Shown here one piece after another: positions 5,896 through 63,549 of a stretch of 64,000 nucleotides of DNA. The DNA is from Candidatus Omnitrophota bacterium. Lineage in GTDB: Bacteria > Omnitrophota > Gorgyraeia > JAZDFF01. Both the position numbers and the translations under genes were made by a program. Each line of letters starts with the position of its first letter. Positions within the stretch are counted from its first letter, which is position 1. Under the pieces are notes generated by a model. The model did not search any database, was not told where the DNA came from, and worked only from the letters and a program-made list of their open reading frames with translations. Where the stretch lies: NCBI GenBank assembly GCA_043808095.1, contig JAZDFF010000042.1, positions 137,364-201,363 on the forward strand, read 5' to 3'.

Positions 5896-5896
5896 T

Positions 5897-8591: not shown

Positions 8592-8615
8592 TGCATGAAT
8601 GTTAAAAAATTATCA

Positions 8616-45285: not shown

Positions 45286-46794
45286 TTATTCGGATGTTTT
45301 GTCTATTATGCCTCGGGTTAGTTTATACAATGTTATTTCTATAGGGAAAGAATAAAAATTAAACGAAAGTCTTATCCTGGCTAAGCGCTGAAAAATCCTA
45401 AATACGAATTTAACTAAAATAGCAAATCTCTTTTCTTTTATTTTTTCGCGTGTTGCCTGCGATGGATAGGCAAGCTGAAAATAGAAAAAGGCGACATCGC
45501 GGATTAGCCTTCTATATCTATCATCAAGCCACGGCGTCTTTACATCTCTTAAGGTATGTTTTGACCACTCGAGTAAACTCTTTGGCTCTTTCATCCCGTT
45601 TTTAAGTGCCATTTCATAAAGATCAGTTCCGGGGTATGGCGTGTACAGAAATAGCTTAAACTCAGTTTCTGGGTAAAATCGTTTTAACTTTAATGCCAAT
45701 TTTATAGTCATATGTAAATCTCTTCTGGGTGACATTGGGAAACCAGCCATCGTTGAAAGGATCGGCGATATTCCATGTCTTTTTGCTTTTTTTACAAACT
45801 CGATCGTATCTTGCACGGTAGAATCTTTGTGAACCAAATCAAGAATGGCCTGTTCTCCAGATTCAGCTCCGGTAAGAATCCTACTGCAGCCGCTTTCTTT
45901 TAATAATTCATAAAAATCATCATCAAATTTAGCCAATTGTCTGGGATGGCCTAGAGTATCCCATTTTATCCCTAACTTGTTTTTAATAAAACCGCGGCAG
46001 ATCTCTTCTACCCTCTTTTTGTCCACTAAGAAATTATTATCCTCGCAATAAATCCCCTCAAGATTATATGTCTTTACTAAAAAAGTCACCTCTTGTATTA
46101 CGCGCTCTGATTTTAATCCAAACCATCGACGATTGTATACCATCTTATCAACGCAAAATCCGCACGCATATGGACAACCCTGGGTAGATAGATAACTCAT
46201 CGTCCTCAATTTTGAAACAGGATGGATGCCTACATAGTTTTCTAAATTTACCAAATTAAATGTATAGGGAGGAAAATTATTAATATCTTCAAGGGGGCGC
46301 GCCGGGTTTTTAACTAAATTACCGTCAACTTTAAATGCTGTGCCCAAGAGCCCATCTAAGGACGAGCCTTGCTTAAGTCTTTCTACCAGTTCGGCAAACG
46401 TCCTTTCTCCCTGCCCGTAAACCACAATATCTACATAGGGATTTTCCAATGTTTGTTCGGGAAAAATTGAAGGATGCCATCCGCCCCAAACAATAGGTAA
46501 ATCAGGATAACTTTCTTTAACTACCTTAGCTATGTCCAGCCCTCCTTTTATCTGACTGCCGGTAAAAGCACTAATCCCAAAACATATAGCCCTATCCAAG
46601 GAAGATAGAACTTTCTTCTGAATACCCTGCTCAACGCGTTCATCAAATATCATAACCTCAACATTATTCTCAAGTAACAAGCCGGATATAGATATTACGG
46701 AAAAAGGAGTTCTATGCCAAGTCGTATCGGGCAATAAGGGATCAGGGAAAAATAAAACTACTCTATTTTTGCCAACAATTTGCTTTCCTGACAT
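45286..46794 (-). CDS. B12-binding domain radical SAM protein (class B rSAM) paralog 5
   Basis: 502 aa with FGISAFTG, IVWGGWHPSIFP, TQGCPYACGFCVD and YTPYPGTDLY. Confidence 0.85.
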   Translation of the reverse strand: MSGKQIVGKNRVVLFFPDPLLPDTTWHRTPFSVISISGLLLENNVEVMIFDERVEQGIQKKVLSSLDRAICFGISAFTGSQIKGGLDIAKVVKESYPDLPIVWGGWHPSIFPEQTLENPYVDIVVYGQGERTFAELVERLKQGSSLDGLLGTAFKVDGNLVKNPARPLEDINNFPPYTFNLVNLENYVGIHPVSKLRTMSYLSTQGCPYACGFCVDKMVYNRRWFGLKSERVIQEVTFLVKTYNLEGIYCEDNNFLVDKKRVEEICRGFIKNKLGIKWDTLGHPRQLAKFDDDFYELLKESGCSRILTGAESGEQAILDLVHKDSTVQDTIEFVKKAKRHGISPILSTMAGFPMSPRRDLHMTIKLALKLKRFYPETEFKLFLYTPYPGTDLYEMALKNGMKEPKSLLEWSKHTLRDVKTPWLDDRYRRLIRDVAFFYFQLAYPSQATREKIKEKRFAILVKFVFRIFQRLARIRLSFNFYSFPIEITLYKLTRGIIDKTSE

Positions 46795-46820: not shown

Positions 46821-48734
46821 TTATTTAACAAAATTGGTGGCTGACATTGTATTGATTAACTCAACAATTCGCTGCGAAGAACACCCATCTAATTTACCTG
46901 CATAATATGCAACAAGTTTTTTTCTATTTGATACCAATTCTTCTTTAAGTTTTGCATTTTCCAAAAGCCCTTCTATCGCGGGAGCTATATCTTCGGCCTT
47001 ATATACACCTAAGGCCGCTCCTCGTTCAGCAAATGGAAGGGCGTCTTTCCTTTTGGTTAAGTTTATGGTAATTAATGGCTTATCGAGAATCATTGCCTCC
47101 AAACCAACTGTAGAGTTAACTGTCATCAAAAGGATGCTAGCCCTAATCAAGGCAAAAATATCTATATCCCTAACAAGAATGAAATTTTCGGAACCTATCT
47201 TTTTTATCAACCTTTCATATATCGAGTAATCTTCAAAGGGATGAAGCTTTACAACCAGTTTTATATTATTAGGTATTTTTTTAATAGAAGCTATAACGCT
47301 TCTCAATAAGACCTCGTTTTCATCTTCTGTTCTATAAGAAGAAAACTTCGTAATGGGTTGTGTAGCTAAAATAATAAATTTTTTTTTAGGATCTAGGCCT
47401 AATTTTTTATAAATTATTTTTCTTTCTGACTCTTGGCTTTTAGAGTAAATTCTATCGTATTTAGGGCTACCAGTGATTGCCAATTTGTTAGTAGGATTCC
47501 CTAGAGAGATATAACGATCAAAGTCTGCCTGACCCCAAACCGCTGTCTTAGTACAAAATAAGATATCATGACCATTATTTTCTGAAAGTACCCCATGGGT
47601 AATATACAAAGTAGGAATATTTAATTCCCGCGCAGCCATTATAATAGTTTTTTCTATTTCCCTGCCATCGGCTCTTAACACAATCGATTTAATTGACCTA
47701 TCTTTAGAAAATTGTTTTAACTGAGCAATGATATTTAAGATACGCGGAAATCTTTCTTTAAAAAATTGTGAAAGCGCCCCCTCCACTAAACCCCAAATTG
47801 GAATATCCTTATATATAAACCTATCCTTAAAAGACGAATTTCGAGATAACTCTTCCCATTTTACGAAAAATTTATTTACTTGTTCCTTTAGTCTCCTCTT
47901 CATTCTACCAGAGGCAGGAATATTGAAAGAGATATATGTCTTCTTTCTTTTAAGACTATATATTCTATTAGCTAAACCTTTCCCTATAGGACAGAATATA
48001 AAATTCTCCAATCGATGGTGTCCTGTCAAAAGAAGATACGCCCGGGGATCAATCAGGATAAAATTATTTAACTTTGCCCTCATAAGAAATAATTGAACTA
48101 ATGGATCAATCAGAAAAAAATAAAAAATATCCGAAAATCTATCCCTAACTCTTCTTTTAAGAAATATTAATGAGTGGAATATGGGTCTATTTACTAAAGA
48201 TAAGATTGGGATATTATTAATCTGACCAGTGATCTTGGCAGCGTCGCACAATTCTTCGGTATCTTCAATGGTTATGATCTTATCAGGTTTTTCCAGACTA
48301 ACAACTCTGTTTATCACTTCCAGATACTTCAGCCGGCAAATCAAAAACCATTGAAAATTGAATTCGGTTAGGCACCCTAAGTGAATATTCTCGTATTCAG
48401 TTATATTTTTTCCATCCTCACCTCTAACTAAATACCAAGTCCGAGTTAAATTTAAGGCATATTCGTCAATATATTTATAGTCTTGGCCCTGAAGATAATC
48501 TTCGGATAATCCCAGGTTGAAATTTAATCCTTGAAAATAAACCGGAACCTTTGAGTTAAAACATATAATTATAAACTTTCCCTTGAATTCTTGTTCAATC
48601 TCCTCAATCAATAATGCTAACTTGTCTAAATTCTCCTGCATTTTAATAAAGAAAACCGTCTTCTGTGAATCCGAAGAAAGAAATTGTAAAATCTTGTGTT
48701 TCCAATTTTCAAAAGGAAAGTATTTATTTTGCAT
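46821..48734 (-). CDS. GT-B-like transferase of the TagF (CDP-glycerol glycerophosphotransferase) / KpsS capsule-synthesis type
   Basis: 637 aa. The C-terminal half has ILATQP.., VVKLHPFE and ..TVNSTVGLEAMILDKPLITI, which matches the TagF/Capsule_synth pattern (KxHP..SxxGxEA..KP). Confidence 0.4.
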   Translation of the reverse strand: MQNKYFPFENWKHKILQFLSSDSQKTVFFIKMQENLDKLALLIEEIEQEFKGKFIIICFNSKVPVYFQGLNFNLGLSEDYLQGQDYKYIDEYALNLTRTWYLVRGEDGKNITEYENIHLGCLTEFNFQWFLICRLKYLEVINRVVSLEKPDKIITIEDTEELCDAAKITGQINNIPILSLVNRPIFHSLIFLKRRVRDRFSDIFYFFLIDPLVQLFLMRAKLNNFILIDPRAYLLLTGHHRLENFIFCPIGKGLANRIYSLKRKKTYISFNIPASGRMKRRLKEQVNKFFVKWEELSRNSSFKDRFIYKDIPIWGLVEGALSQFFKERFPRILNIIAQLKQFSKDRSIKSIVLRADGREIEKTIIMAARELNIPTLYITHGVLSENNGHDILFCTKTAVWGQADFDRYISLGNPTNKLAITGSPKYDRIYSKSQESERKIIYKKLGLDPKKKFIILATQPITKFSSYRTEDENEVLLRSVIASIKKIPNNIKLVVKLHPFEDYSIYERLIKKIGSENFILVRDIDIFALIRASILLMTVNSTVGLEAMILDKPLITINLTKRKDALPFAERGAALGVYKAEDIAPAIEGLLENAKLKEELVSNRKKLVAYYAGKLDGCSSQRIVELINTMSATNFVK

Positions 48735-50229
48735 TCAAATTTGATTTTTCTTTTACCATTTGTAATACGGTGTCAAATATCATAGTCCTTTTATTAAGAT
48801 AGAATAACAATGGTAAACATGCCGTTAAAAAAATAAGCATTTGTAAAAGAAGGCAAATAAGATCAAGCTTTAAATTCTGGAAAGTATTTCTGAAAATTAA
48901 ATTAATAATTATTAAAACACTAGTTGTCCAAACAAAAGGTGCATACAAAATGAAAAGAAATTTCAGGTGCTCCTTTAAGATGCGTGTATAATTACTAAAG
49001 GCAGCGGCGATTAAAGCCAGGCTATAGACAAAATAGGTTAGTGCTGTTGCTAATGCTACTCCGGTTAGACCCAAATTAAAAATCTTTAATAAACTGTAAT
49101 TTAATATTACGCTTATTAAAACAACGCTTGCCCCAATGATTACGATAAACTTCTGTTTATTTAGTGCTGTCAGGAGATACCCTGACATATTGGTAACGGA
49201 GATGAAAAATGTCCCAAGCATCAATATGATAGCTGGCAAGAGCCCTGGTAAATATTTTGGCAGTATATAATGGAGGATTAAAGGCAATACTAATACAGCC
49301 AAACCAACAAAAATTGGGAATAAATATGCGAAGGCCAGAGTAGGATACTCATAATAGTTTTTTATATCTTGAATATTGCCCATTCTTCCGAAAGCCTCAT
49401 AGAAGTTAGGAAATAACACAGCATAAATTAAATTTGGTAACTGAAAAACATAACCGTGCATCATCGTGGCGATACTATAATATCCTAAATTTGTTCTGTC
49501 TAAAAAACCAATTATCATAAATCTATCTACGCTTCTCAATAACATAAAAATAAATCCACTTAAAAGTAAAGGGAAACCAATTTTTATAAGTCTTTTTACT
49601 TCCGTTAAAGGAAATGGAATTTTTAGTTTAAACTGATATCCGCTTGAACTATAAAGATAGGCCAATCTGGCCAAACCAATTAATACAAGGGCTACGAGTA
49701 AACCGTAAAACCCAAATTTCAATAATAAAACAGTAGAAAAAATCAGATTAACCACGCCCATAATTAAAATATATTTAGTCAATAAATCAAATTTATGATG
49801 CGTACGAATCACGACAACATAGAAAGAAATAAAAGCATGTACTATGTTCAAGAATGCGATTATACGAATTCCATTTATAATCATGGATTCATGCATTCCA
49901 TGCATAAAGAACGAATATAATATCAAAATTACCCCAAAGACCAATGAACTAAACATACAGAAACTGAAACCCACGTTACTGATTTCCTTTACCCGGGCAT
50001 AATCCTTTTTACCATTTAAAATTGGGATTTCCCTATCTAGGGCATCTAATACACCCAAATTGTGATTCTTGCCATATTCAAACAATAACATCAATTCCAT
50101 AAATATGCCCATCGTCGCTGGACCAAGGATACGACGTATTATTATTCCTGTAATAAAATCAAGGAAATTGGAGATGTAATTTCCAGCGCTAAACTTTATA
50201 GCATTTTTGATTATCTTTTTTCTACTCAC
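48724..50229 (-). CDS. Wzx-like flippase (MOP/MATE-like polysaccharide biosynthesis protein)
   Basis: 501 aa and multi-TM with an N-terminal KFSAGNYISNFLDFITGIIIRRILGPATMGIF, and it overlaps rSAM6 by 4 nt. Confidence 0.7.
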   Translation of the reverse strand: MSRKKIIKNAIKFSAGNYISNFLDFITGIIIRRILGPATMGIFMELMLLFEYGKNHNLGVLDALDREIPILNGKKDYARVKEISNVGFSFCMFSSLVFGVILILYSFFMHGMHESMIINGIRIIAFLNIVHAFISFYVVVIRTHHKFDLLTKYILIMGVVNLIFSTVLLLKFGFYGLLVALVLIGLARLAYLYSSSGYQFKLKIPFPLTEVKRLIKIGFPLLLSGFIFMLLRSVDRFMIIGFLDRTNLGYYSIATMMHGYVFQLPNLIYAVLFPNFYEAFGRMGNIQDIKNYYEYPTLAFAYLFPIFVGLAVLVLPLILHYILPKYLPGLLPAIILMLGTFFISVTNMSGYLLTALNKQKFIVIIGASVVLISVILNYSLLKIFNLGLTGVALATALTYFVYSLALIAAAFSNYTRILKEHLKFLFILYAPFVWTTSVLIIINLIFRNTFQNLKLDLICLLLQMLIFLTACLPLLFYLNKRTMIFDTVLQMVKEKSNLNAK

Positions 50230-51650
50230 GGGTTTTTGGCCTCTAATAGCTTATTGAAAATTATTCTTAAAGTAGCCAGGGCTCCTTCATCTTTGTAATT
50301 AAGCATTATCCAGCCCCATCGTCTTTTAAGCTGCATGTAGATTCTCCCTAGACGTATTCCAATATCAAAATTTTCTTGAATCTCTTCCTCTGCTTCTTTT
50401 TTTAATCTTGTTAACTCTTCGTTAGAAAAATCTGTAAGGTTTACTAAAAATGTATCGCGCATCTCTCCGAGGCTTTCCACATATTTATCTTCATCTGGCG
50501 GTAATCTCTTCATCGTTTTTGCTAATTCATACAATGGCGTAGCGGGATAAGGAGTGGTAAAAAGAAGTCTATGCTCTGGTATTTTAGTTCTTTTAATAAA
50601 GTCGACCGTCTGATGAATCGTATCTCTCGTCTCACCTACCATGCCAAACATAAATGAGCTCATCACATAGATCCCGGATACTCGTGTAAGCTTAATCGCC
50701 ATTTCTGCTTGATTTATTGTCACCCGCTTATCCATGTTATTCAGGATGCCTTGACTGCCGGATTCAAATCCATATCCTAGGCATATACAGCCTGACTTTT
50801 TCATCGCCTTAAGCAACTCCTTATCAACCAAATTGACGCGTCCGGTAGCACCCCATTTAATATTCAATTTCGCTGACCTTAATTTATTGCAAAGTTCAAG
50901 GACCCACTTTTTTGAGACAATAAAGTGATCTCCGGAAAAAGCTACATATTCTACCCTATAACTTCGTTTTAATTCTTTGAGCTCTTCTATAATATTGTCG
51001 GCACTGCGCGCATATACCCTTTGTCCGAAAGGACGCGAACAATAAACGCATTGATAAGGACAGCCCCTGACAGCGCAAAGATTTATACTCCTGAGCCCGA
51101 ATTCAATATGGATAGGATTTTTTAAATATACCTCCATAGGAAAAAGGTCCCAGGCAGGAAAAGGTATTTTATCCAAGTCTTTAATCCTGTCTCGGGGGGC
51201 AGTTTGGAATATGGCGCCGTTTCTCTTATACCATAGGCCATTTATACTGTTTAGGTCCCCCTCATCCTTAGCAGAAAATAATTCCCTGACGGTATCTTCC
51301 CCTTCGTCAATTACGGCAATATCGACATCGCTATTCTCGAGTAATAAACGAGGAGTCGCTGTAGCGACCATGTTCCCGACAATTATCCTTACTTTCGGCC
51401 GTAATCTTCTGATTAATTTAGTCAGCCATTTTATATATTTATAGGTAGTAGTCAGACCTCCAATGCCAACGCAATCAAATTCTGCTTCCTTAATTTTTTC
51501 TTCAACTTCTCTATCATTATATTGATAGGCATTTATGTCTAAGATTTCTACCTTATGGCCATCGTTTCTTAATACGCTAGCAATGTATCCCAGGCCTAAA
51601 GGAATCATGTTGGGACTGCGACAAGGCGGATTCATCAATAAGACTTTCAT
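50226..51650 (-). CDS. B12-binding-domain-like radical SAM protein paralog 6 (GGxHx(S/T) motif degenerate)
   Basis: 474 aa with CVGIGGLTT, VRGCPYQCVYCS and TTPYPATPLY. IIVGNMVATATP stands in place of the GGPHxS motif. Confidence 0.8.
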   Translation of the reverse strand: MKVLLMNPPCRSPNMIPLGLGYIASVLRNDGHKVEILDINAYQYNDREVEEKIKEAEFDCVGIGGLTTTYKYIKWLTKLIRRLRPKVRIIVGNMVATATPRLLLENSDVDIAVIDEGEDTVRELFSAKDEGDLNSINGLWYKRNGAIFQTAPRDRIKDLDKIPFPAWDLFPMEVYLKNPIHIEFGLRSINLCAVRGCPYQCVYCSRPFGQRVYARSADNIIEELKELKRSYRVEYVAFSGDHFIVSKKWVLELCNKLRSAKLNIKWGATGRVNLVDKELLKAMKKSGCICLGYGFESGSQGILNNMDKRVTINQAEMAIKLTRVSGIYVMSSFMFGMVGETRDTIHQTVDFIKRTKIPEHRLLFTTPYPATPLYELAKTMKRLPPDEDKYVESLGEMRDTFLVNLTDFSNEELTRLKKEAEEEIQENFDIGIRLGRIYMQLKRRWGWIMLNYKDEGALATLRIIFNKLLEAKNP

Positions 51651-51664
51651 TAAAAATCCTCGGG

Positions 51665-53206
51665 TTAAGGCCTAAACCCAGGCCCTTTCTTTAAATCCGA
51701 ATTGCTTAACTCCATAGTTACCACTTCATTATCTTTTTCTGTCTGCCTGAACCATGCGCGCGAAAACATCTTCAGGGAAGCTGTATTGTCTTTCTTAACC
51801 TTAGCAATGACGGTCTTAATATTAAGGTAGTCAAAAGCGTGTTTGCTGCTCAATTTTGTCGCCGACAGGCCTAACCCTTGGCCTCTTTTTTTGGGAGCAA
51901 TATTGATATTTATGACTGCAGTTTTATCATTGTCAGGCATGATATCAAATCTTACCATGCCGACGGACCGACCATCTTCCTGGATTATAAAAATCTTTCG
52001 TTTTTTGTCTGCCAGGACCTTTTTAAACCAGACTAAATGCGACTTTAAGGGAATACGGCTTGTGTTAAACGAAAACTTTCTGGTAATCTTATCGTTGCGC
52101 CATTTCCAAATATCTTGGGCATCGTGCCATGACGCCGGCCTGATATTAACTTTCCGTAATAATGGCCAGGTTAAAATATCGTCTTTCTCAATGTTAGTTT
52201 TTGTGACTCGCCCGATAACTTCATTCGCCATTTTGGGATGGATCCCGTATCCAGGCCTTTTAACTGCAATCATACTGTTAGTAATTATCTCGCCCCTTCT
52301 AATATCGCAGGCCGCCACAAGGCTTCTGCGAGCCAATCTATATAGCTCCTCTTCCGCCTTAGTGTGGCTTTTAACCCGAGAGCCCAGAGACGCCTCGGTA
52401 TCCCTAATCGCCACTACCATGGCTTTTAGTTCTTCCGGTTCTAAGGCAAAAGGATGGTCTAATCCGGGCAGTTTTCTGTTTAAAGTGAAATGCTTCTCGA
52501 TTACACATGCGCCTAAACTAACAGCAGCAATATCGGCAGTAATGCCCAAGGTGTGATCAGAAAAACCTACTGGCAAATTGAATTTCCGACGCATTGTCTG
52601 GATAGCCCTTAAGTTTAAATCTGCGTATTCGGGAGGATAGTTTATGGCACAATGCAAAAGAATAACATCATGGTTTGCCTGCTTATATATTGTTTTTAAG
52701 GCCGTTTCTATGTCTTTTAAATCTGCCATACCCGTAGATAAGATAATCGGCTTCTTCTTCCCTGCTGTGTGTTCTAAAAGCGGCAAATGCGTAATTTCAA
52801 ATGAGGCAATCTTGTATGCCTGGACCCCTACATCCTCTAAGAGATCAACTGCCTCAATGTCAAACGGCGTAGATAGAAAAATAATGCCTTTTTTCCTGCA
52901 ATATTCGAAAAGCAGGCCGTGCCAATCTCTGGGCAATTCTACTTTTTTAAATAGATCGTATACTGTTTCGCCCTTTTTGATTAGCCTCTTTTTTCTAAGA
53001 TAGGACATGACGGGCGTTTTAGCCGAATAAAGATTCTCGGCGGAGAACGTCTGAAACTTTACTGCATCTGCCCCTGCATATTTGGCAACATCAATGAGCT
53101 CTTTTGCCTGCTTAAGCTTTCCGTTATGATTAGAGCCGACCTCGGCAATAACAAAGACCGGACGGCCTTGGCCTATTAATTTATTACCAATCTTAATCTG
53201 TCTCAT
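51665..53206 (-). CDS. NeuB/PseI/LegI-family nonulosonic acid synthase fused to a C-terminal GNAT N-acetyltransferase (PseH-like)
   Basis: 513 aa. The N-terminus VFVIAEVGSNHNGKLKQAKELIDVAKYAGADAVKFQTF is a NeuB signature, with an SAF domain around residues 290-350. The C-terminal roughly 150 aa form a GNAT fold (..FIIQEDGRSVGMVRF..KRGQGLG..). Confidence 0.85.
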   Translation of the reverse strand: MRQIKIGNKLIGQGRPVFVIAEVGSNHNGKLKQAKELIDVAKYAGADAVKFQTFSAENLYSAKTPVMSYLRKKRLIKKGETVYDLFKKVELPRDWHGLLFEYCRKKGIIFLSTPFDIEAVDLLEDVGVQAYKIASFEITHLPLLEHTAGKKKPIILSTGMADLKDIETALKTIYKQANHDVILLHCAINYPPEYADLNLRAIQTMRRKFNLPVGFSDHTLGITADIAAVSLGACVIEKHFTLNRKLPGLDHPFALEPEELKAMVVAIRDTEASLGSRVKSHTKAEEELYRLARRSLVAACDIRRGEIITNSMIAVKRPGYGIHPKMANEVIGRVTKTNIEKDDILTWPLLRKVNIRPASWHDAQDIWKWRNDKITRKFSFNTSRIPLKSHLVWFKKVLADKKRKIFIIQEDGRSVGMVRFDIMPDNDKTAVININIAPKKRGQGLGLSATKLSSKHAFDYLNIKTVIAKVKKDNTASLKMFSRAWFRQTEKDNEVVTMELSNSDLKKGPGFRP

Positions 53207-53207
53207 C

Positions 53208-54014
53208 TTAGTTATCCCTTAAGCCTTTTTGTTTGACATCTTTGTTTATCCGGTGAATCCAAAGCTCTTTTTCCAGAAGATTTGAGATATTTTCAATTGA
53301 GAAATTGTTTATTTTCTTATATAACCTTTTATAGACCTGCCTGGTAAATTGTAAATCCTGCCTGGTATCTACTGTCAGGCGCAGCCCGGAGAGGTCTCTA
53401 GAATATTTAACATTGCCTAATCGAAAGAGGTCCGGATGTTCATAGATATAGGCAGTAACATGTTCTCTCTGATAGGCCTTATCTGCCGCCTTCCAGCATC
53501 TTTGAAGTGCCTGCATAGTAAAAACCTCAACCCCTAATCCGACCGGGTAAGACGGAATCAAAAAATTACTCACGTAATCCAGGGTTTTTTTATGTTTAAA
53601 GTAGTAGCGAATAACTCTATCAACAATTCTTGCGCTTAAAAAAGGACAATCTGAGCAAATCCTGACGACAACATCTAGTTTATTTTTCTTTGCTGCCTGA
53701 TAATATCTATCAAGGACGTCATTCTCGCTGCCGATAAAGGTCTTTACCTTACAACCTGCTGCCAGTTTCAAAATAGGCAAATCCGCTTTTTTAGCAGTAG
53801 TTGCGATAATTATCTCAAATGAAAACTGCGACTTTTTTAAACGCTCTATCAAATACCACAACATTGGTTTACCTAAAATATGCTTCAAAACTTTCCCTGG
53901 TAAACGAGTAGAACCCATCCTTGCTTGCACAATAACGCCAATTTTCATATTTAACAGGTGTACTATTTTATATAATCCACGAATAAACTCCGATAATTTA
54001 TAAACTTTATCCAA
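53208..54014 (-). CDS. acylneuraminate cytidylyltransferase-family CMP-nonulosonic acid synthetase (NeuA/PseF-like); true start probably the internal ATG near 53948
   Basis: MKIGVIVQARMGSTRLPGKVLK is the canonical CTP_transf_3 N-terminus. The track ORF starts at a TTG 22 codons upstream. Confidence 0.8.
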   Translation of the reverse strand: MDKVYKLSEFIRGLYKIVHLLNMKIGVIVQARMGSTRLPGKVLKHILGKPMLWYLIERLKKSQFSFEIIIATTAKKADLPILKLAAGCKVKTFIGSENDVLDRYYQAAKKNKLDVVVRICSDCPFLSARIVDRVIRYYFKHKKTLDYVSNFLIPSYPVGLGVEVFTMQALQRCWKAADKAYQREHVTAYIYEHPDLFRLGNVKYSRDLSGLRLTVDTRQDLQFTRQVYKRLYKKINNFSIENISNLLEKELWIHRINKDVKQKGLRDN

Positions 54015-54079: not shown

Positions 54080-55627
54080 TCAGCCGCAAGAAAACCTATT
54101 TTTCCTCTGCAAAATAATCCTCCGGAAATAATATCCTTTTAAGATCCTATTTAAACTATCTACCGCCTGCTGTGGATTTTTTATCCTATCGAAAAATTTC
54201 TGTACCATCGCAAGAGGATAAATTATCTTTGGCCGATTAAAAATTAACTTTGATCTGCTAAATTTCCTAATCAGAAATTTAGGAATACCAGGATAACGGG
54301 TCATAAAAAATAGGATGTCCCAGAATAAATCTTGTGGCTTCCTGGTAATATCTAACTCGGCTGTCCAGCGAAACATCGATTTTTGCTCTTCGCATTCCAC
54401 AAATTCATTCTTAATCAGGCCTTCTTTTATAGCACGCTGTGTCAATTCTACTCCGGGGAAGAAAGTCAGTGAATGCTGGTGTAAATCAAATGGTCTGGGA
54501 AACTTTAGAAGAAGATCTAAAGATTTGTATTTATCTTCTATTACCTCAAATGGATTATCCAGTAGTAAATCGTAACAAGGTTTCACTGTCTTGCCTTTAA
54601 AATATTGCGAAACAGCCTCAATATCTGCATTACTATAAGACTTTATATTAAATACTTCCTCCCTAACACGCTCCGAGCCGCTCTGTATGCCCATGGTCAT
54701 CGACTTTAGGCCCGCGCGTGATAACATTCCAATAACTTCATCTTTAACTAGGCTTGGTTGCGAATAACATGAGAAAGGAATATTTATTCCTTTTCTATAT
54801 AGTTTTATAAATTCACTAAGCCAGGCTCCATCAAAAGTAAAGACATCATCTACTATATGAATTACCTTTAAATCCGGAAAATTAGTTTTAGCCATTTTTA
54901 ACTCTTCTATGACCCGACCTACAGAACGACGGCGGACATACGGCCCTTTGCCGCTATAAAGTTTTTTCAAAGCATCATTACAACAAAAATAACAAGAAAA
55001 AGGACATCCAAAACTCGACATTATGTAGTAACTTTTGTCTATCAAATCATTTGGGATATTCCTGTATACACAATCTTTTTCAATATAAAAGGTATTCTGG
55101 TCACGCCAATCCGGGTTAGGATAATTATCCAGATTTGATTCGAGATTCCGAACAGGATTTCTGATTATCTCTCCATTATCTTTTTTTATCCATATGTTCT
55201 CGATTTTCTCTAAATTCGCCTTATCCGCCCTAGCCAGATTTTCAATCAATTCCAACATAGGATAAATCCCCTCGCCTATACAAATAGCATCAGCACAATT
55301 TAGCGAATGCTCCGGAGCCACCGTAGGATGAATACCACCCCATACTATAAATATATTTTCATTAATACTTTTAACTATTTTGGTCAATTCCTTTGCATGC
55401 TTAAAAAAAGTAGAGTTGACGCTGATGCCAATAAGATCAGGCCTAAGCTCTTCTATAAGATTGCGGAATAAAAGGTATTCTTTATCAGTGGGATTAGGCA
55501 TGCTATTTGGAGTAATTTCCTTAAAAAATATAGGAAATACCTGATTAGGAGTTTTCTTAATAGCTGCAGTCAACATCCTAATCGAAATGGATTTAAATAA
55601 GTATAGCGATACTAAAACAATCTTCAT
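54080..55627 (-). CDS. B12-binding domain radical SAM protein (class B rSAM) paralog 7
   Basis: 515 aa with LIGISVNS, IVWGGIHPTVAP, SSFGCPFSCYFCCN and LTFFPGVEL. Confidence 0.8.
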   Translation of the reverse strand: MKIVLVSLYLFKSISIRMLTAAIKKTPNQVFPIFFKEITPNSMPNPTDKEYLLFRNLIEELRPDLIGISVNSTFFKHAKELTKIVKSINENIFIVWGGIHPTVAPEHSLNCADAICIGEGIYPMLELIENLARADKANLEKIENIWIKKDNGEIIRNPVRNLESNLDNYPNPDWRDQNTFYIEKDCVYRNIPNDLIDKSYYIMSSFGCPFSCYFCCNDALKKLYSGKGPYVRRRSVGRVIEELKMAKTNFPDLKVIHIVDDVFTFDGAWLSEFIKLYRKGINIPFSCYSQPSLVKDEVIGMLSRAGLKSMTMGIQSGSERVREEVFNIKSYSNADIEAVSQYFKGKTVKPCYDLLLDNPFEVIEDKYKSLDLLLKFPRPFDLHQHSLTFFPGVELTQRAIKEGLIKNEFVECEEQKSMFRWTAELDITRKPQDLFWDILFFMTRYPGIPKFLIRKFSRSKLIFNRPKIIYPLAMVQKFFDRIKNPQQAVDSLNRILKGYYFRRIILQRKNRFSCG

Positions 55628-55666: not shown

Positions 55667-56860
55667 CTATTCCAAGGTGGATTCGATGTCAAAAAGACTC
55701 AAATAAAACGATGAAAAAAATAATTGGATTCCTAAAATTATAAAAGTAATTCCTCCGATAGCCAATCTCGTAAGCCTTACATTAATAGGCCCATACGCAG
55801 GTAATCTTGACAAAAAATATAAAGTACTTAGTGAAATCAAAAGCCCTATAGCGAATATTACGCTACCCAGCAATATCCCTTTTTCGAGGGTAAAGTATTT
55901 TATGATAAATTTCACCAGTGAATCTTCTTTTGTAAACCTGCTATAGAAGGCCGCTAATTTTGCCGAGGCGCCGAATAATATAATCTGCATCCCCACAAAC
56001 ATTAGTGCCGAGGCCCCGATCATGCCGGAGATCCCAAGCGGAATATGAAAAATTACGATTATTTTAAACATAGATATGAAGAATATAGAAAAGCCCAATA
56101 TAAAAAGCACAAGACCCGGCAACAAAAACAAATAATCAGGACAAAACAGGAGCATAAATCTTAAGTGCCTCCAGCCGTCTCTAAATGGATGAAGATGCGG
56201 CCGGCGGCCTTTAATAGAAGGCCGATAGTCAATAGGTACCTCTTCTATCTTAAGGCCGGCCTGTGCCGACTTTATCAACATCTCCGAGGCAAACTCCATG
56301 CCCCTTGTCTTTAATTCCAGTCTTTCGATAGCAGCTTTGCCAAAACCCCTGAGACCGCAATGGGCATCAGAAACCCTGGCCCTAAAGAACAAATTTAAGA
56401 TGGCCGTAAGAACGGGGTTACCGATATAGCGATGAGACCAATGCATGGCGCCAGGAAACATTTTGCCTTTAAATCTACTGCCCATTACCAAATCAGTGCC
56501 CTGACGAAACCTGGTTACAAAGGGCTCAATCTCTGAAAAATCATAGGTATCATCGGCATCACCCATAATAATATATTTACCCTTGGCCTCTTTAATCCCC
56601 TCTTTTATGGCGCTTCCGTAACCTTTCTCCTGTTTATAAATTACCCTGGCCCCTTCTGACTCGGCAATCCTTATAGAATTATCTACAGAGCCGTTATCAA
56701 CAACGATAACTTCTCCGGTAATCTTTAATTTCAAAAATGACCCTATCGCCTTCTTTACGCAGGTGCCTACAGTATCCTCTTCGTTAAGACAGGGTATTAC
56801 GACGGTCAGTTCCACATTCGATATCTGAGGGCGCTCTTTCATTTTTTCACTCTCATCCAT
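55667..56860 (-). CDS. GT2 polyprenyl-phosphate sugar synthase with C-terminal 4-TM domain (GtrB/ArnC-like)
   Basis: 397 aa with LTVVIPCLNEEDT, VVDNGSVDNS and MGDADDTYD (DxD), followed by 4 predicted TM helices. Confidence 0.85.
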   Translation of the reverse strand: MDESEKMKERPQISNVELTVVIPCLNEEDTVGTCVKKAIGSFLKLKITGEVIVVDNGSVDNSIRIAESEGARVIYKQEKGYGSAIKEGIKEAKGKYIIMGDADDTYDFSEIEPFVTRFRQGTDLVMGSRFKGKMFPGAMHWSHRYIGNPVLTAILNLFFRARVSDAHCGLRGFGKAAIERLELKTRGMEFASEMLIKSAQAGLKIEEVPIDYRPSIKGRRPHLHPFRDGWRHLRFMLLFCPDYLFLLPGLVLFILGFSIFFISMFKIIVIFHIPLGISGMIGASALMFVGMQIILFGASAKLAAFYSRFTKEDSLVKFIIKYFTLEKGILLGSVIFAIGLLISLSTLYFLSRLPAYGPINVRLTRLAIGGITFIILGIQLFFSSFYLSLFDIESTLE

Positions 56861-58257
56861 TTTAGGAAATTTAGACTCCTGAGTAACTGTACCGGAGAAC
56901 TAATCACAAAGAATTGTTTCATAATAAAAGACGGGCGCAAATAGAATTTTCTAAAAGCCTTATCGCGCAGATAATTCACTTCTTCAGGCCTGATGCTATC
57001 CGTATTTAGTATGGAACTGCCTCCGAAATTATAATCCGACCATTTATAGGTAGTAATCCAGCCGTTCTTCTTGGCTATCTGCCATAATTCCGTTTTAGGA
57101 TAAGGAACGGCGCAATAAGACTGCAGATAATCCAGTCCGAGCCTAAGGGCATACTTAATCGTCTGCTCCCCGCTTTTCTTAGTTTCGCCCGGAAGGCCAA
57201 AAATTAAATGCCCCATTGTCTTTATCCCGACTTTTCTGCATAAACCTACCGCCCTTTCAATATCCTTCAGCGTCTCCTGTTTTTTGGCTGTATCCAGAAT
57301 CTTTTGACTTGCACTTTCAATACCCAGGCCCAACAAGTTGCAACGCGCCTCCTTCATTTTATAGAGCACATTTTCATCGACGGCATCAGCCCTGGTTGTT
57401 GCCGCCCAACTAATATTTAAATTGCTTTTAATGATTGCTTCGCATAAATCCAGGCAGTATTTTTTATCCAAAGTAAAGGCCTCCTCCCAGAAGAGGAAAT
57501 CTTTGATATTATATTTTTTTACGCATTCGGCTATCTCATCCATGACATATTTCAGGGAGTGACGGCGTATCTCGCGGCCGTAGTAAAAAGGGGCAATGCA
57601 GAATATGCACGGATACGGGCACCCCCGGGAGGTATTGATCAGGGCAAAGGCCCGTCCGTTGTGCGGAAGAATATATTTTTCATTCTTAAATAAATCCCTC
57701 CCCGGATAGGGCAGTCTATCCAGGTCCTTTATAAACGGCCTGGTTTGATTCTGGATTAACTGTCCGTTTCTTCTAAAAATTAATCCCTTAATATCCTCAA
57801 GGTTATTGCCTTTATCAAGCAGACAGTCCAGTAATTCATCAAAGGTCTCTTCCGGTTCCCCGAAAATAGCAAAATCTAAATGCGGATAATCTCTTAGAGA
57901 ATCTTTCTCTAAGAGGGCAAAGTAAACTCCGAATCCAATCGTCTTGATGTCTTTATTTTTTTCTTTAATCCTCCTGGCAATATCCATATCTGAATCGATA
58001 GTAGGAAATGCGGTATTTATTACTACGGCATCCGGCCGGAAGTTTTCTATATCTTCAAGCAGGCTTTTTTCGTTCAGGTCTTCGACATTACAGTCTACAA
58101 GACACACGTCGGATTTCCTTGCGGCAATGGCAGCCAGAATTCCAAGAGTAATCGGAGGCCAGATGGCCGCCCAGGAAGATACGCTCTGCATGCACCTTCC
58201 TTCCCTTATATATTTGGTACCGCCAACTGCTGGGGCATTTAAAAAATAAATACGCAC
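56839..58257 (-). CDS. B12-binding-domain-like radical SAM protein paralog 8 (GGxHx(S/T) motif absent)
   Basis: 472 aa with VVINTAFPT, TSRGCPYPCIFCI and AVPYPKTELW. The expected GGPH position reads IGFGVYFALLEK. It overlaps the upstream GT2 gene by 22 nt. Confidence 0.8.
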   Translation of the reverse strand: MRIYFLNAPAVGGTKYIREGRCMQSVSSWAAIWPPITLGILAAIAARKSDVCLVDCNVEDLNEKSLLEDIENFRPDAVVINTAFPTIDSDMDIARRIKEKNKDIKTIGFGVYFALLEKDSLRDYPHLDFAIFGEPEETFDELLDCLLDKGNNLEDIKGLIFRRNGQLIQNQTRPFIKDLDRLPYPGRDLFKNEKYILPHNGRAFALINTSRGCPYPCIFCIAPFYYGREIRRHSLKYVMDEIAECVKKYNIKDFLFWEEAFTLDKKYCLDLCEAIIKSNLNISWAATTRADAVDENVLYKMKEARCNLLGLGIESASQKILDTAKKQETLKDIERAVGLCRKVGIKTMGHLIFGLPGETKKSGEQTIKYALRLGLDYLQSYCAVPYPKTELWQIAKKNGWITTYKWSDYNFGGSSILNTDSIRPEEVNYLRDKAFRKFYLRPSFIMKQFFVISSPVQLLRSLNFLKWMRVKK

Positions 58258-58265
58258 AAATTACC

Positions 58266-59849
58266 TCATTTAGCTTTATAGATATAAACTACCGGGCCTG
58301 ATACCCCTTCGGGATACTTATATACCTTCTCCAAAAGAATGTAATTCTTGTTAATTATGGACTCAATTTCATTCTTATAGTCAGAAGAAACAAGAGTCGA
58401 TAAATTATCTAACCTTCCCGGCCTTTCCAGGACTATAAATTTAGCCTTTTTATCTTTAAAATAGCTTAAAATTATGTTAGGGCTGAGCAACTTATATTCC
58501 TGCGCTACTTTATCAGGTACATAAGGAAAATTTGAAGTCGAAGATAGTTCATAAACAGTGTCTTCAAATATCTGGCGATGGGCATGTAAGACATAACCAT
58601 TGATAAATGCAAAGATTTTTTCCCCGGGCTGCGTATGGCGCTGGATAGCAGAGGTAACTTTATTAAGAAAACTTACTCCTGCATACTGGGGAGAGTTAAT
58701 AACCCCTTCGATGTCTTGCGTAAATAAATTTAAGAATAAAATTGCTGAAAGAAAAATCGTAAAAAATAATTTCTCATTATGGAAATTAAAGTGCTCTAAA
58801 ATTTTCTTTATACAGCATCCTATCAAAATTGCCAAAACCGGAAAACCATGATACGGAAATTTCTGTAACGCATTGCCAAAAATAGCTAAATAGAAGATTG
58901 CATTCATCATTACTAATGTAAGAAATATAAAATATATCTTATGCGTGATTAAAATAGAAAAAAGAGTTTTTTTGCCCTTCAACAATAGCCGATAGTGGTA
59001 AAAAGCATATATGCCCGATAGCAACGATAATAATATTAGCACATAGTAATTTCTAAATAAGATTAAGAGCATTTTGATACGGTCATAAATACAAATTGCC
59101 AAGGTATAAGTAGTATTTATACTTTTACCAACGCCAAATACAAAATTATACGAAAAATAGTGAATAAAAACATCGAATAAGAAAGCCTTCGGTGCAATGA
59201 GGAGAAACGGTAGATAAATGATTAAAGATGTGCCAATATAAGAAAGAATAATTGAGCTAATGGCCTTCTTGTTTTCTCGATTAAGATATACACTAAAAGT
59301 AACAAATAAAAGTGTATATATAGTCATGTAATCAAGTGCATAACGAACACCTTGAACCAATACTAATAACGCAGTGCATAAACTATATTTTATTATTGGC
59401 TTTGTCTTGGAAACGAGTAATAAACAGAACAGTGATAAAATAAAATTCTCTAAAGTCCCCCAGTAGAAGATTGAATTATAGATAATGTCGAGATTAAAAA
59501 TAACTATGAGCATTGCAAAGATTCCTGCATATTCGCCCTTTAAAAGTCGAGCCGTCTTATAAATAAAAATTATCGTTAAAAGCCCTAATAAAAATGATAT
59601 CAGCCTGGCGACGATAAGATTAGACCCGAAAATAAACATGCCTATCCCATAAAAATAAGGCACAAGCGGCATATGAAAATAAGCAAAGTCACGGTAAGGC
59701 AATTTACCTTGAGCAACAAGACTGCTTGCTGCGAAATGCCAATTTTCATCTGTTACCCTAAGACCAGAGAGATAAACAACAGACAGCCCAATAATAAAAT
59801 AGCTGATAATGCATATATAAAAAACAATCTTATAATAGTTATGTTTCAT
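58266..59849 (-). CDS. GT-C fold glycosyltransferase, GT39/PMT_2-like, with C-terminal periplasmic domain
   Basis: 527 aa with about 12 TM segments. It has the first-loop acidic motif RVTDENWHF, and the C-terminal roughly 150 aa are hydrophilic. Confidence 0.55.
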   Translation of the reverse strand: MKHNYYKIVFYICIISYFIIGLSVVYLSGLRVTDENWHFAASSLVAQGKLPYRDFAYFHMPLVPYFYGIGMFIFGSNLIVARLISFLLGLLTIIFIYKTARLLKGEYAGIFAMLIVIFNLDIIYNSIFYWGTLENFILSLFCLLLVSKTKPIIKYSLCTALLVLVQGVRYALDYMTIYTLLFVTFSVYLNRENKKAISSIILSYIGTSLIIYLPFLLIAPKAFLFDVFIHYFSYNFVFGVGKSINTTYTLAICIYDRIKMLLILFRNYYVLILLSLLSGIYAFYHYRLLLKGKKTLFSILITHKIYFIFLTLVMMNAIFYLAIFGNALQKFPYHGFPVLAILIGCCIKKILEHFNFHNEKLFFTIFLSAILFLNLFTQDIEGVINSPQYAGVSFLNKVTSAIQRHTQPGEKIFAFINGYVLHAHRQIFEDTVYELSSTSNFPYVPDKVAQEYKLLSPNIILSYFKDKKAKFIVLERPGRLDNLSTLVSSDYKNEIESIINKNYILLEKVYKYPEGVSGPVVYIYKAK

Positions 59850-62339: not shown

Positions 62340-62342
62340 AAC

Positions 62343-63542: not shown

Positions 63543-63549
63543 TATCTTT

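Follow-up and report, generated by a model that had tools for sequence, protein, structure and literature searches.

The closest described counterparts of the gene analysed here belong to pathways for nonulosonic acids of the pseudaminic (Pse) and legionaminic (Leg) type. The acetyltransferase PseH of Campylobacter jejuni and Helicobacter pylori has a catalytic Tyr (PMC4363471), and a fusion of PseG with PseH was described in Aeromonas (PMC7874193). For Bacillus subtilis, Sps enzymes of families similar to those discussed below were reported to produce legionaminic acid (PMC7439481). In Caulobacter, the Pse pathway has been reconstituted with a functional cytidylyltransferase that is not related to PseF (PMC7591256). 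The BFO_1060 family includes the genetically validated Pse/Leg transferases of Tannerella (PMC5420450). In the open-access literature we found neither a published NeuB-GNAT or PseI-PseH fusion nor a report of nonulosonic acids in Omnitrophota.

The window (the whole 64-kb stretch of DNA analysed) carries a gene in which a synthase and an acetyltransferase are joined:

51665-53206, minus strand: fusion gene, 513 aa, NeuB TIM barrel, SAF and C-terminal GNAT domains (Pfam)
52166-53206, minus strand: synthase module, aa 1-347, with the NeuB TIM barrel at 52370-53098 (aa 37-279) and SAF, ending at the conserved DDILTW
52145-52165, minus strand: fusion junction, 21 nt coding for PLLRKVN (aa 348-354), in the place of the relatives' stop/start overlap or short spacer
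51668-52144, minus strand: GNAT domain, aa 355-513, PseH-like (RimL/Acetyltransf_3 type), followed by a stop codon at 51665-51667

The boundaries and the minus strand agree with the preliminary description of this DNA, and its main claim, a NeuB-family synthase and a PseH-like GNAT in one protein, is borne out by Pfam, NCBIfam and PDB matches. NeuB (PF03102; aa 37-279, E 1.6e-97, 326 bits, cut-off 22.1) is followed by SAF (PF08666; aa 293-350, E 1.8e-12, 48 bits, cut-off 21), both above the gathering scores as befits a NeuB-family synthase, and then by GNAT/Acetyltransf_3 (aa 353-484, E 5e-15, 56.8 bits). The fusion passes the NCBIfam models NeuB_NnaB (TIGR03569; 409.7 bits, cut-off 399.65) and PseI (TIGR03586; 360.5 bits, cut-off 340.25) and misses PseH (TIGR03585; 65.5 bits, cut-off 93.1). 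With both synthase models passed and NeuB_NnaB scoring higher, NCBIfam HMMs alone are ambiguous on the choice between PseI and NeuB_NnaB. Catalytic residues are intact in both domains. The AF2 model has a pLDDT of 92.6 and a pTM of 0.76; a fold search with it found no PDB chain covering both domains (maximum query TM-score 0.62).

Functional residues of the synthase were mapped on the N. meningitidis NeuB structure 1XUU, whose functional positions we take to be the metal ligands (SDH and the E-K/R-H histidines), the PEP-binding Lys, Ser and Gln, and a SAF-domain Arg reaching the partner active site. As expected of the full NeuB module described earlier, the metal and PEP-site residues are kept: E22, K50, Q52, K132, S135, E137, S157, Y190, S216-D217-H218, E237, H239, D250 and R317. 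In the alignment with NmNeuB the equivalences are E22=E25, K50=K53, Q52=Q55, K132=K129, S135=S132, S157=S154, Y190=Y186, H218=H215, H239=H236, D250=D247 and R317=R314, the last of which was functionally targeted in the Neisseria enzyme (mutant PDB entries 4IPI/4IPJ). Among solved structures, the best sequence match is B. subtilis SpsE (1VLI, 256 bits, 45% identity); C. jejuni PseI (8H2C) gives 230 bits and 36%, and N. meningitidis NeuB is 34% identical. In fold, the synthase part of the AF2 model comes nearest to CjPseI (TM 0.91, against 0.83 for NmNeuB), but the synthase is placed apart from the canonical PseI clade of C. jejuni in the NJ tree, which contains no LegI reference sequence and so does not separate Leg-type from Neu-type synthases. 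IMG labels some members of the synthase clade 'NeuB/LegI'.

The C-terminal part is GNAT-like on HMM search (Acetyltransf_3), in line with the earlier assignment, and is modelled with a pLDDT of about 94. Among solved structures it comes closest to C. jejuni PseH (4XPK, E 2e-11, whole domain aligned); SpeG-type polyamine acetyltransferases are the next structural neighbours. The AcCoA motif (R441-G-Q-G444-L-G446) and N474/S477 are present and conserved across six aligned fusions, in which N474/S477 are invariant. Phe481 stands at the position of the catalytic Tyr of Cj and Hp PseH (Hp Tyr138). We infer from the NxxS motif, rather than from an alignment with RimL or MccE, that Ser477 matches the general-acid Ser of RimL/MccE-type GNATs. 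Thus the domain has the GNAT fold, the AcCoA motif and a putative general-acid residue but scores below the PseH equivalog cut-off. The free-standing GNAT of the related locus L001, 56% identical to it and part of a full set of Pse genes, likewise stays below the cut-off with 76.2 bits; the PseH model TIGR03585 may therefore be too narrow.

The fusion gene is surrounded by the following genes:

54080-55627, minus strand: B12-binding radical SAM 'rSAM7' (Pfam B12-binding and Radical_SAM), upstream of the cytidylyltransferase
53208-53948, minus strand: CTP_transf_3 cytidylyltransferase (Pfam, E 5.7e-37, 128 bits), in an ORF listed as 53208-54014
50226-51650, minus strand: B12-binding radical SAM 'rSAM6' (Pfam B12-binding and Radical_SAM), between the fusion and the flippase
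48724-50229, minus strand: Wzx-type flippase (Polysacc_synt, Pfam), 31% identical to the flippases of L001 and L005
46821-48734, minus strand: 637-aa GT-B-like protein, candidate CMP-nonulosonate glycosyltransferase

The cytidylyltransferase gene precedes the fusion gene in transcription, its stop codon 1 nt from the fusion's ATG. The listed ORF reaches back to a TTG at 54014; homologues start with MK(I/V)G, and the true start is probably the ATG at 53948 (MKIGV..., 246 aa). The product is 53-56% identical to the CTP_transf_3 proteins encoded immediately upstream of neuB in L001 and L002, and its closest solved relative is 6OEW, named 'Cytidylyltransferase' (140 bits). Of the earlier name, a NeuA/PseF-like CMP-nonulosonic-acid synthetase, the CMP-nonulosonate part stands and the PseF/NeuA part does not: with 30.1 bits against a cut-off of 205.7 the protein is not a member of the PseF model TIGR03584, and it is probably a CMP-nonulosonate synthetase of a different CTP_transf_3 subgroup.

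The two genes reported to flank the module, rSAM6 and rSAM7, are indeed both B12-binding radical SAM genes by Pfam, and only 14 nt including GAGGA separate the fusion's stop from the rSAM6 ATG. Nine B12-radical-SAM enzymes interleave the cluster; their density around the fusion is a more unusual feature of the locus than the fusion itself.

Beyond rSAM6, the flippase is syntenic with those that follow neuB and GNAT in L001 and L005, and the 637-aa ORF holds the position of their Capsule_synth genes. The C-terminal half of the latter product matches Epimerase_2, Glyphos_transf and Capsule_synth in Pfam, and aa 385-631 match the NCBIfam models of BFO_1060 glycosyltransferase (92.7 bits, cut-off 200) and TIGR04396 (85 bits, cut-off 125). 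We considered this ORF as a cryptic PseG/NeuC and rejected that as the main reading: the PseG profile gives 12.6 bits and the NeuC model 28.6 (cut-off 235.9) against 92.7 for BFO_1060, the Epimerase_2 domain is not full-length, and L001 has both PseG and the syntenic Capsule_synth gene.

No PseB, PseC, PseG or LegG orthologue was found in the 64-kb window with NCBIfam, Pfam and a PseG profile, so the PseG/LegG equivalent that the preliminary description proposed to look for is absent within this stretch. The highest scores reached in the window are 54 bits on PseB (cut-off 408) and 317 on PseC (cut-off 424). The nearest candidates for the early steps are:

35789-36781: LegB-like dehydratase, 427 bits on LegB, below the cut-off of 475
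35072-35779: sugar-1-P nucleotidylyltransferase, adjoining the LegB-like dehydratase
1170-2276: LegC-like aminotransferase, 349 bits on LegC, below the cut-off of 420

As there are no PseB/PseC orthologues and LegB and LegC are only sub-threshold, the window does not encode a complete pathway. Neither LegB and LegC above their cut-offs nor a hydrolysing 2-epimerase (Epimerase_2, LegG/NeuC) is present. The DegT aminotransferases and SDR dehydratases, taken earlier as a sign of a Pse/Leg sugar, are not PseB/PseC orthologues; the closest are these LegB- and LegC-like genes.

More can be learnt from the relatives. The order CTP_transf_3, neuB, GNAT is found as separate genes in L001 and L002-L004; the GNAT gene directly follows neuB in L005-L007 and lies three genes downstream in L008. 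All three parts have diverged evenly from L001, with identities of 56%, 57% and 56%. Neighbours of the NeuB clade score above the curated thresholds of PseB (463-527 bits, cut-off 408), PseC (518, cut-off 424) and PseG (243-277, cut-off 154), which holds for L001, L006, L007 and L008; the window itself contributes only the GNAT and the CTP-transferase. L001 has exactly six genes for the six Pse steps, its GNAT is the sole acetyltransferase, and its NeuB and GNAT show the same pattern of HMM scores as those of the window. Additional GNATs are encoded in L007 and L008, and formyltransferase and PIG-L deacetylase genes lie beside neuB in L002-L004 and L008.

Since its NeuB-clade relatives sit with curated PseB, PseC and PseG, the fusion is best read as PseI-PseH. 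We favour, with reasonable confidence, the view that the 513-aa protein is truly bifunctional and belongs to a pathway of the pseudaminic acid type; the protein would have arisen when neuB/pseI and a downstream pseH-like GNAT gene lost the stop and start signals between them. The pathway assignment rests on the relatives, not on the window's own genome. The C-terminal GNAT would carry out the PseH step, acetyl-CoA-dependent N-acetylation of the 4-amino group of an NDP-4-amino-4,6-dideoxy-HexNAc. A hydrolase encoded outside the window would then free 2,4-diacetamido-2,4,6-trideoxyhexose (the PseG step), which the NeuB/SAF module, with its predicted divalent-metal site H218/H239, would condense with phosphoenolpyruvate (the PseI step) into a 5,7-diacetamido-3,5,7,9-tetradeoxy-nonulosonic acid. 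The cytidylyltransferase encoded 1 nt upstream is expected to turn this acid into the CMP-sugar, on which the downstream flippase and Tannerella-type GT-B protein probably draw to build the glycan. The earlier suggestion of a Pse/Leg-type nonulosonic acid is supported, and the fused steps are, as had been observed, not consecutive in the Pse pathway. Because non-consecutive steps are joined, and because such fusions arose repeatedly in either domain order, the fusion probably brings nothing beyond a fixed 1:1 stoichiometry or co-localisation. Nothing suggests new chemistry; the pathway is a known one, and the fusion varies its architecture in a minor way.

The junction itself bears on whether the two genes are truly joined. 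The end of NeuB (DDILTW) and the start of GNAT (IRPASW...WKWRN) are in one frame, with 21 nt and no stop between them. Relatives have at this boundary either TGA, 8 nt and ATG (L001) or an ATGA overlap (L002 and L005); the 21-nt junction holds no relic stop or start codon, and no in-frame ATG, GTG or TTG occurs from aa 326 to aa 417 of the fusion. The pLDDT is 88-95 across the junction and the first strand of the GNAT starts at aa 353. At the DNA level, as assembled in one MAG, the fusion is genuine: two genes which every close relative keeps separate, side by side, have merged in frame. We find it very improbable that an assembly or consensus error has joined genes that are separate in the organism. 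It is true that the protein forms a singleton cluster from one contig and one MAG, has no fused homologue above 73% identity and has no record in the assembly index on exact look-up; nor did an independent copy of the junction emerge from JGI metagenome contigs (0 matches to the 45-nt junction sequence) or from GTDB representative genomes, where none of the pattern matches for the fusion protein was confirmed by tblastn with the full-length query. However, two flanking motifs in the same frame with 21 clean nt between them could not be produced by a single indel, a miscalled stop codon would leave a start codon or an overlap, and neither is there. The junction is also modelled confidently, and analogous fusions with linkers adding 0 to ~13 alignment columns occur in many independent assemblies. 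Less credible still is a Neu5Ac synthase with an unrelated acetyltransferase attached. This would fit the PGAP name 'N-acetylneuraminate synthase' and the top NCBIfam match, TIGR03569, but identity to N. meningitidis NeuB is 34% as opposed to 36-45% to PseI and SpsE, the PseI model is passed too, NeuC is absent from the window, and PseB, PseC and PseG adjoin the clade relatives. The GenBank name is probably wrong.

Other readings keep the bifunctional architecture and differ in the product or in the acylated substrate. Against a Pse product count the lack of PseB, PseC and PseG in the window, early enzymes closest to LegB and LegC, a NeuB_NnaB score above the PseI score, a synthase outside the canonical PseI clade and a GNAT under the PseH cut-off with Phe481 for the catalytic Tyr, as does the Leg product reported for B. 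subtilis Sps enzymes of similar families. The product could instead be legionaminic acid or another 5,7-diamino nonulosonate stereoisomer, which we regard as rather unlikely. The LegB-like dehydratase, the adjacent nucleotidylyltransferase and the LegC-like aminotransferase would then feed the GNAT, which would replace an LbH-type LegH, and NeuB would act as LegI. Such a pathway is in keeping with the LegB and LegC scores in a window without PseB/PseC, with the higher score on TIGR03569 (a NeuB/LegI-inclusive model), with the 'NeuB/LegI' names in IMG and with SpsE as the best solved sequence match, whose pathway with the GNAT SpsD and with SpsF was reported to give Leg (PMC7439481). Yet neither Leg-model score reaches its threshold, and 15-50 kb separate these genes from the fusion; a LegG/NeuC-type hydrolysing 2-epimerase is missing from the window, where the sole Epimerase_2 match is the C-terminal half of the 637-aa ORF, and every relative of the synthase clade with enough context lies in a PseB/PseC/PseG cluster. 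More doubtful is a combination of the two, in which a Pse-type late module (the PseI-PseH fusion and a non-PseF cytidylyltransferase) would be coupled to early enzymes of Leg-like kind, the cluster lacking a PseG/LegG-type NDP-sugar hydrolase. If so, the free hexose would come from an unrecognised enzyme or the product would be a new nonulosonate stereoisomer or derivative, perhaps changed further by one of the nine B12-radical-SAM enzymes, and the joining of non-consecutive steps would be the mark of a PseH/hydrolase/PseI metabolon and not of genes that merely happened to be neighbours. We give equally little credence to the GNAT performing another acylation, for example N5/N7 re-acylation of the nonulosonate after deacetylation, or acting on another glycan sugar. 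The sub-cut-off PseH score, the SpeG-type neighbours and Phe in place of the catalytic Tyr would agree with this, and the extra GNATs of L007/L008 and the formyltransferase and PIG-L genes of L002-L004 and L008 point to N-acyl remodelling in such clusters. On the other hand, L001, with the closest GNAT, covers the six Pse steps with six genes and a single acetyltransferase, the GNAT family is repeatedly fused to PseG, the user of the PseH product, and Ser477, the inferred general-acid site in the NxxS motif (PMC4363471), is invariant in six aligned fusions.

A PseI-PseH fusion is thus our preferred reading, and it has parallels in other bacteria. An exhaustive search of representatives was used to survey the GNAT family, for which a word-indexed search with the GNAT part gave 3 matches. 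NeuB+GNAT fusions make up at least 14 clusters (50% identity), occur in either domain order and span at least four synthase lineages; in about 20 clusters the fusion partner of this GNAT family is PseG. The top 120 homologues, up to 73% identical, are all unfused. The architecture had been called unusual, which is right within its own clade, where it is the sole fused member among these 120, and not beyond it. Such fusions recur because neuB and GNAT genes adjoin, often overlapping by 4 nt, as seen in the relatives. As the other fusions are 35-38% identical to that of the window and mostly belong to other clades, ours is an independent fusion event, and no other fused member of its clade has been sampled. 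Where their context is available, the other fusions lie in nonulosonate loci: L009, L010 and L011 contain CTP_transf_3, and L009 carries PseB- and PseC-type genes (by Pfam families only). A link between fusion and loss of PseG was rejected, since L010 and L011 keep a PseG-like gene beside the fusion and only L009 is without one.

The main value of the fusion lies in annotation and pathway reconstruction; by itself it opens no new biological question. 'N-acetylneuraminate synthase' in GenBank and 'GNAT family N-acetyltransferase', given to a fused relative, each miss half of the protein. Recurrent GNAT fusions with PseG and with NeuB/PseI are independent Rosetta-stone evidence that divergent GNATs below the cut-off are the N-acetyltransferases of the pathway, and they could justify a broader PseH model. 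A natural PseH-PseI fusion might also serve as a single polypeptide for chemo-enzymatic synthesis of pseudaminic acid.

Compared with known systems, the fusion shares the NeuB TIM barrel and SAF with PseI (C. jejuni Cj1317, PDB 8H2C) and SpsE (1VLI), and differs from them in its covalent GNAT, found in no solved homologue. CjPseI, despite being nearest in fold, belongs to a separate clade, and the fusion scores higher on NeuB_NnaB than on the PseI model; SpsE is nearest in sequence. The RimL-like GNAT fold is shared with PseH (C. jejuni 4XPK, H. pylori 4RI1), CjPseH aligning end to end including the WRN and AcCoA-binding motifs, and the genomic partners of PseH are those of this GNAT family in the relatives. 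The differences are the score below the model cut-off, Phe481 for Tyr, Ser477, and fusion in place of a free-standing protein. By its description, the B. subtilis SpsC/D/G/E/F Leg pathway likewise includes a GNAT, SpsD, as well as the cytidylyltransferase SpsF (PMC7439481), but all Sps enzymes are separate proteins, and SpsG and the dehydratase SpsM have no counterpart in the window.

Closest in architecture are MBU0469186.1 (Ca. Omnitrophota, P0147), P0130, P0176, P0219, P0257, P0277 and P0278, which have the same three-domain content and short linkers; the domain order is reversed in P0169, P0279, P0280, P0308 and P0309. Most of the other fusions group with canonical PseI or belong to further lineages. 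FlmD of Aeromonas caviae, the PseG-PseH fusion, likewise joins the same GNAT family to a pathway enzyme, with an origin from adjacent genes in both cases. FlmD, however, unites consecutive steps, as its hydrolase uses the product of the GNAT, whereas the partner of the GNAT in the window is a synthase acting two steps downstream.

The preliminary description had a NeuB-family synthase with a SAF domain and a C-terminal GNAT united in one 513-aa protein, with a NeuA/PseF-like cytidylyltransferase adjoining. Pfam finds all three domains of the fusion and a CTP_transf_3 neighbour; as in the whole 64-kb window, both genes are on the minus strand:

51665-53206, minus strand: fusion ORF, 513 aa
aa 37-279 of the fusion: NeuB domain (Pfam, E = 1.6e-97)
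aa 293-350 of the fusion: SAF domain (Pfam)
aa 353-484 of the fusion: GNAT domain (Pfam Acetyltransf_3, E = 5e-15)
53208-54014, minus strand: cytidylyltransferase ORF, upstream of the fusion (Pfam CTP_transf_3, E = 5.7e-37)

A single nucleotide separates the cytidylyltransferase stop codon from the fusion ATG, and B12-binding radical SAM genes (Pfam) border the pair on both sides, as had been described. The mechanical cytidylyltransferase ORF opens at TTG, 22 codons (53949-54014) 5' of a conserved MKIGV start. Because homologues begin with MK(I/V)G, the ATG at 53948 is probably the true start; a clear Shine-Dalgarno sequence is absent at either candidate. In GenBank the fusion, on a 218-kb contig, bears the name 'MAG: N-acetylneuraminate synthase [Candidatus Omnitrophota bacterium]'.

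The metal- and PEP-binding residues expected of a NeuB domain are kept. The synthase half has E22, K50, Q52, K132, S135, E137, S157, Y190, S216-D217-H218, E237, H239, D250 and R317, equivalent to E25, K53, Q55, K129, S132, E134, S154, Y186, S213-D214-H215, E234, H236, D247 and R314 of N. meningitidis NeuB, which we take to be the functional positions from the 1XUU work. R314 mutants of the latter enzyme exist as solved structures. The C-terminus is GNAT by HMM search, and alignment with C. jejuni PseH (4XPK) spans this half end to end (E = 2e-11); the AcCoA motif is R441-G-Q-G444-L-G446. At the position of the catalytic Tyr of C. jejuni and H. pylori PseH (Hp Tyr138; PMC4363471), the fusion has Phe481. 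Judging from its NxxS motif, Ser477 may be the counterpart of the general-acid Ser of RimL/MccE; N474 and S477 are unchanged in an alignment of six independent fusions. The AlphaFold2 model is confident along its whole length (pLDDT 92.6, pTM 0.76), and CjPseI gives the best superposition of its synthase part (TM 0.91). The first GNAT strand begins at aa 353, so the model has no flexible linker. No solved structure found by fold comparison covers both domains.

None of the top 120 homologues of the whole fusion, at up to 73% identity, is fused; they are NeuB proteins about 350 aa long. The nearest relatives of the fusion's GNAT are free-standing 149-aa proteins (55-56% identity). In contigs from relatives the genes are separate: CTP_transf_3, neuB and GNAT follow in this order in L001 and L002-L004, the GNAT gene comes directly after neuB in L005-L007 and three genes downstream of it in L008. 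The neuB/GNAT boundary is an ATGA overlap in L002 and L005 and an 8-nt gap in L001. In the fusion, the NeuB end DDILTW and the GNAT start IRPxxW...WKWRN share one frame across a 21-nt joint (PLLRKVN) without a relic stop or start, an arrangement that one indel would not have produced. As the stretch between aa 326 and aa 417 contains no in-frame ATG, GTG or TTG, separate production of the GNAT is impossible. Identity to L001 is even over the cytidylyltransferase (56%), synthase (57%) and GNAT (56%), which speaks against chimeric assembly. The fusion is known from one assembly only; searches of JGI metagenome contigs for its junction and of GTDB representative genomes for the protein found neither. 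Most likely it arose by merger of adjacent genes.

HMM scores by themselves leave the synthase type ambiguous: the fusion passes both NeuB_NnaB (409.7 bits, cut-off 399.65) and PseI (360.5 bits, cut-off 340.25) and stays under the PseH cut-off (65.5 against 93.1 bits). Genomic context would settle much of this ambiguity for both domains. Synthases of the same clade stand in L001, L006 (Ca. Gorgyraea atricola), L007 and L008 amid genes above the curated cut-offs for PseB (463-527 bits, cut-off 408), PseC (518, cut-off 424) and PseG (243-277, cut-off 154). In L001 exactly six genes match the six Pse steps, and its NeuB (403 on NeuB_NnaB, 365 on PseI) and GNAT (76 on PseH) score much like the fusion. 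The clade is therefore read as PseI and PseH, and a bifunctional PseI-PseH is the likeliest identity of the window's protein, whose GenBank name would probably be wrong. NCBI and IMG give the entire clade (P0002-P0120, 62-74% identical to the fusion) the name 'N-acetylneuraminate synthase', yet those of its members that have context stand in PseB/PseC/PseG clusters. This is probably a systematic misannotation, since both models (TIGR03569, TIGR03586) are passed and the larger score prevails. The proposed PseF type of the cytidylyltransferase did not hold (30 bits, cut-off 206). The reconstituted Caulobacter Pse pathway, which employs FlmC, a cytidylyltransferase without homology to PseF (PMC7591256), provides a precedent for such an enzyme.

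The Pse/Leg-type reading is favoured, but the window lacks the early enzymes. When every ORF of the window was scanned against Pfam and NCBIfam, no PseB, PseC, PseG or full Epimerase_2 was found, and a PseG profile made from 20 sequences (positive controls 198-457 bits) reached 12.6 bits at best, so that the PseG/LegG equivalent to be looked for is missing from the 64 kb. Nor are the DegT and SDR genes elsewhere in the cluster, which had been cited for the Pse/Leg reading, PseB/PseC orthologues; the nearest candidates for the early steps are:

35789-36781, minus strand: LegB-like gene, sub-threshold (427 bits, cut-off 475)
1170-2276, minus strand: LegC-like gene, sub-threshold (349 bits, cut-off 420)
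41517-42620, minus strand: best PseC-like DegT, about 38% identity to relatives' PseC

Genes for the early steps must accordingly lie elsewhere in the genome, unless the route is a hybrid one. We consider it unlikely that the product is of Leg type or another stereoisomer instead of Pse; some weight is kept on this because Sps enzymes of B. subtilis, which come from similar families, are reported to make legionaminic acid (PMC7439481). The PseI-PseH fusion is no general substitute for PseG: of the loci of other NeuB+GNAT fusions, L010 and L011 retain a PseG-like gene beside the fusion, and it is missing in L009 only, where PseG went undetected up to about 10 kb away on both sides. L009 (6496-11455) has a reverse-order GNAT-NeuB fusion, with CTP_transf_3 and genes of PseB and PseC type (assigned by Pfam family only); directly ahead of the fusion is a gene for AP_endonuc_2, a xylose-isomerase-like TIM barrel.

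Downstream of the fusion lie a B12-binding radical SAM gene, a Wzx-type flippase (31% identity to the L001 and L005 flippases) and a GT-B-like ORF of 637 aa, whose C-terminal half matches TIGR04396 and the BFO_1060 family (92.7 bits, under the cut-off of 200), Tannerella transferases of Pse/Leg derivatives validated by knock-out (PMC5420450). This ORF is a candidate transferase of the CMP-sugar.

The window forms one cluster, in which nine B12-binding radical SAM genes are interspersed with glycosyltransferase and sugar-nucleotide genes:

13222-14643, 16563-18095, 21689-23194, 38078-39502, 45286-46794, minus strand: B12-binding radical SAM genes 1-5
50226-51650, 54080-55627, 56839-58257, 59846-61276, minus strand: B12-binding radical SAM genes 6-9
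10871-12121, 30340-31734, 36786-38081, 58266-59849, minus strand: four PMT_2/GT-C membrane glycosyltransferases
12179-12931, 34375-35058, 55667-56860, minus strand: GT2 genes, AglJ/DPM-like (polyprenyl-phosphate-sugar synthase-like)
4072-5895, minus strand: 607-aa protein, WecA/MraY-like Glycos_transf_4 with a C-terminal CoA_binding_3 region
43129-45261, minus strand: 710-aa ORF, no Pfam match, weak chlor_Arch_YYY (39.8 bits, cut-off 300)
within 61410-63957, minus strand: GDP-L-fucose-synthase-like SDR (430 bits, cut-off 500)

This density of B12-binding radical SAM genes is a rarer feature than the fusion; a radical SAM gene also adjoins the nonulosonate genes in L006 (B12-binding) and L010. 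The GT-C genes near GT2 genes suggest several periplasmic glycosylation steps dependent on lipid-phosphate-sugar. Three genes (19565-21478, 32486-33550, 33547-34368) match XrtA/PEP-CTERM-associated EPS families, all below cut-off (amidotransferase 644 bits, cut-off 817; FemAB-family 140, 260; polysaccharide deacetylase 255, 276). In its C-terminal region the 607-aa protein resembles WcaJ/EPS sugar transferases in their N-terminal part, a domain combination unusual among initiating transferases. At the top of the window, 61410-63957 also encodes a C-terminal fragment of a transketolase and a DegT aminotransferase or dehydrase like RfbH, which together with the SDR hint at a separate deoxy- or branched-sugar pathway.

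How common the fusion is was assessed by searching 1.84 billion representatives exhaustively with HMMER, using the SAF+GNAT portion as query and classifying the matches locally. Among the best 150 matches, a ranking that the SAF in the query tilts towards NeuB fusions, there are seven full-length NeuB+GNAT proteins (P0130, P0147, P0176, P0219, P0257, P0238 and, in reverse order, P0169), seven fragments of such proteins and about 20 fusions of PseG with GNAT, in either order. P0277 and P0278 (NeuB-GNAT) and P0279, P0280, P0308 and P0309 (GNAT-NeuB) came from a further, profile-based search. P0147 (MBU0469186.1) comes from a different Omnitrophota MAG and is annotated as GNAT acetyltransferase only. 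Identity between these other fusions and ours is 35-38%. By an NJ tree of the synthase domain, the majority belong to the CjPseI clade, P0147 and P0257 form a separate lineage and P0238 clusters with SpsE. The window's fusion belongs to a fourth clade, whose remaining sampled members are all unfused, and represents a recent, independent event. Four lineages with fusions imply at least four origins. The architecture, singled out as unusual, is so within its own clade, but not among NeuB proteins at large.

Gene fusions seem frequent in nonulosonate clusters. The L006 locus encodes an 820-aa protein with CTP_transf_3 (6625-9087), and in L011 CTP_transf_3 is fused to a class-III aminotransferase (5786-7750, 654 aa). 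Our search of the open-access literature found no description of a PseI-PseH fusion. The preliminary observation is confirmed, and its interpretation holds in part. The protein is a minor, repeatedly evolved architectural variant without a sign of new chemistry, and a fusion of PseG with PseH is already known from Aeromonas caviae (PMC7874193).
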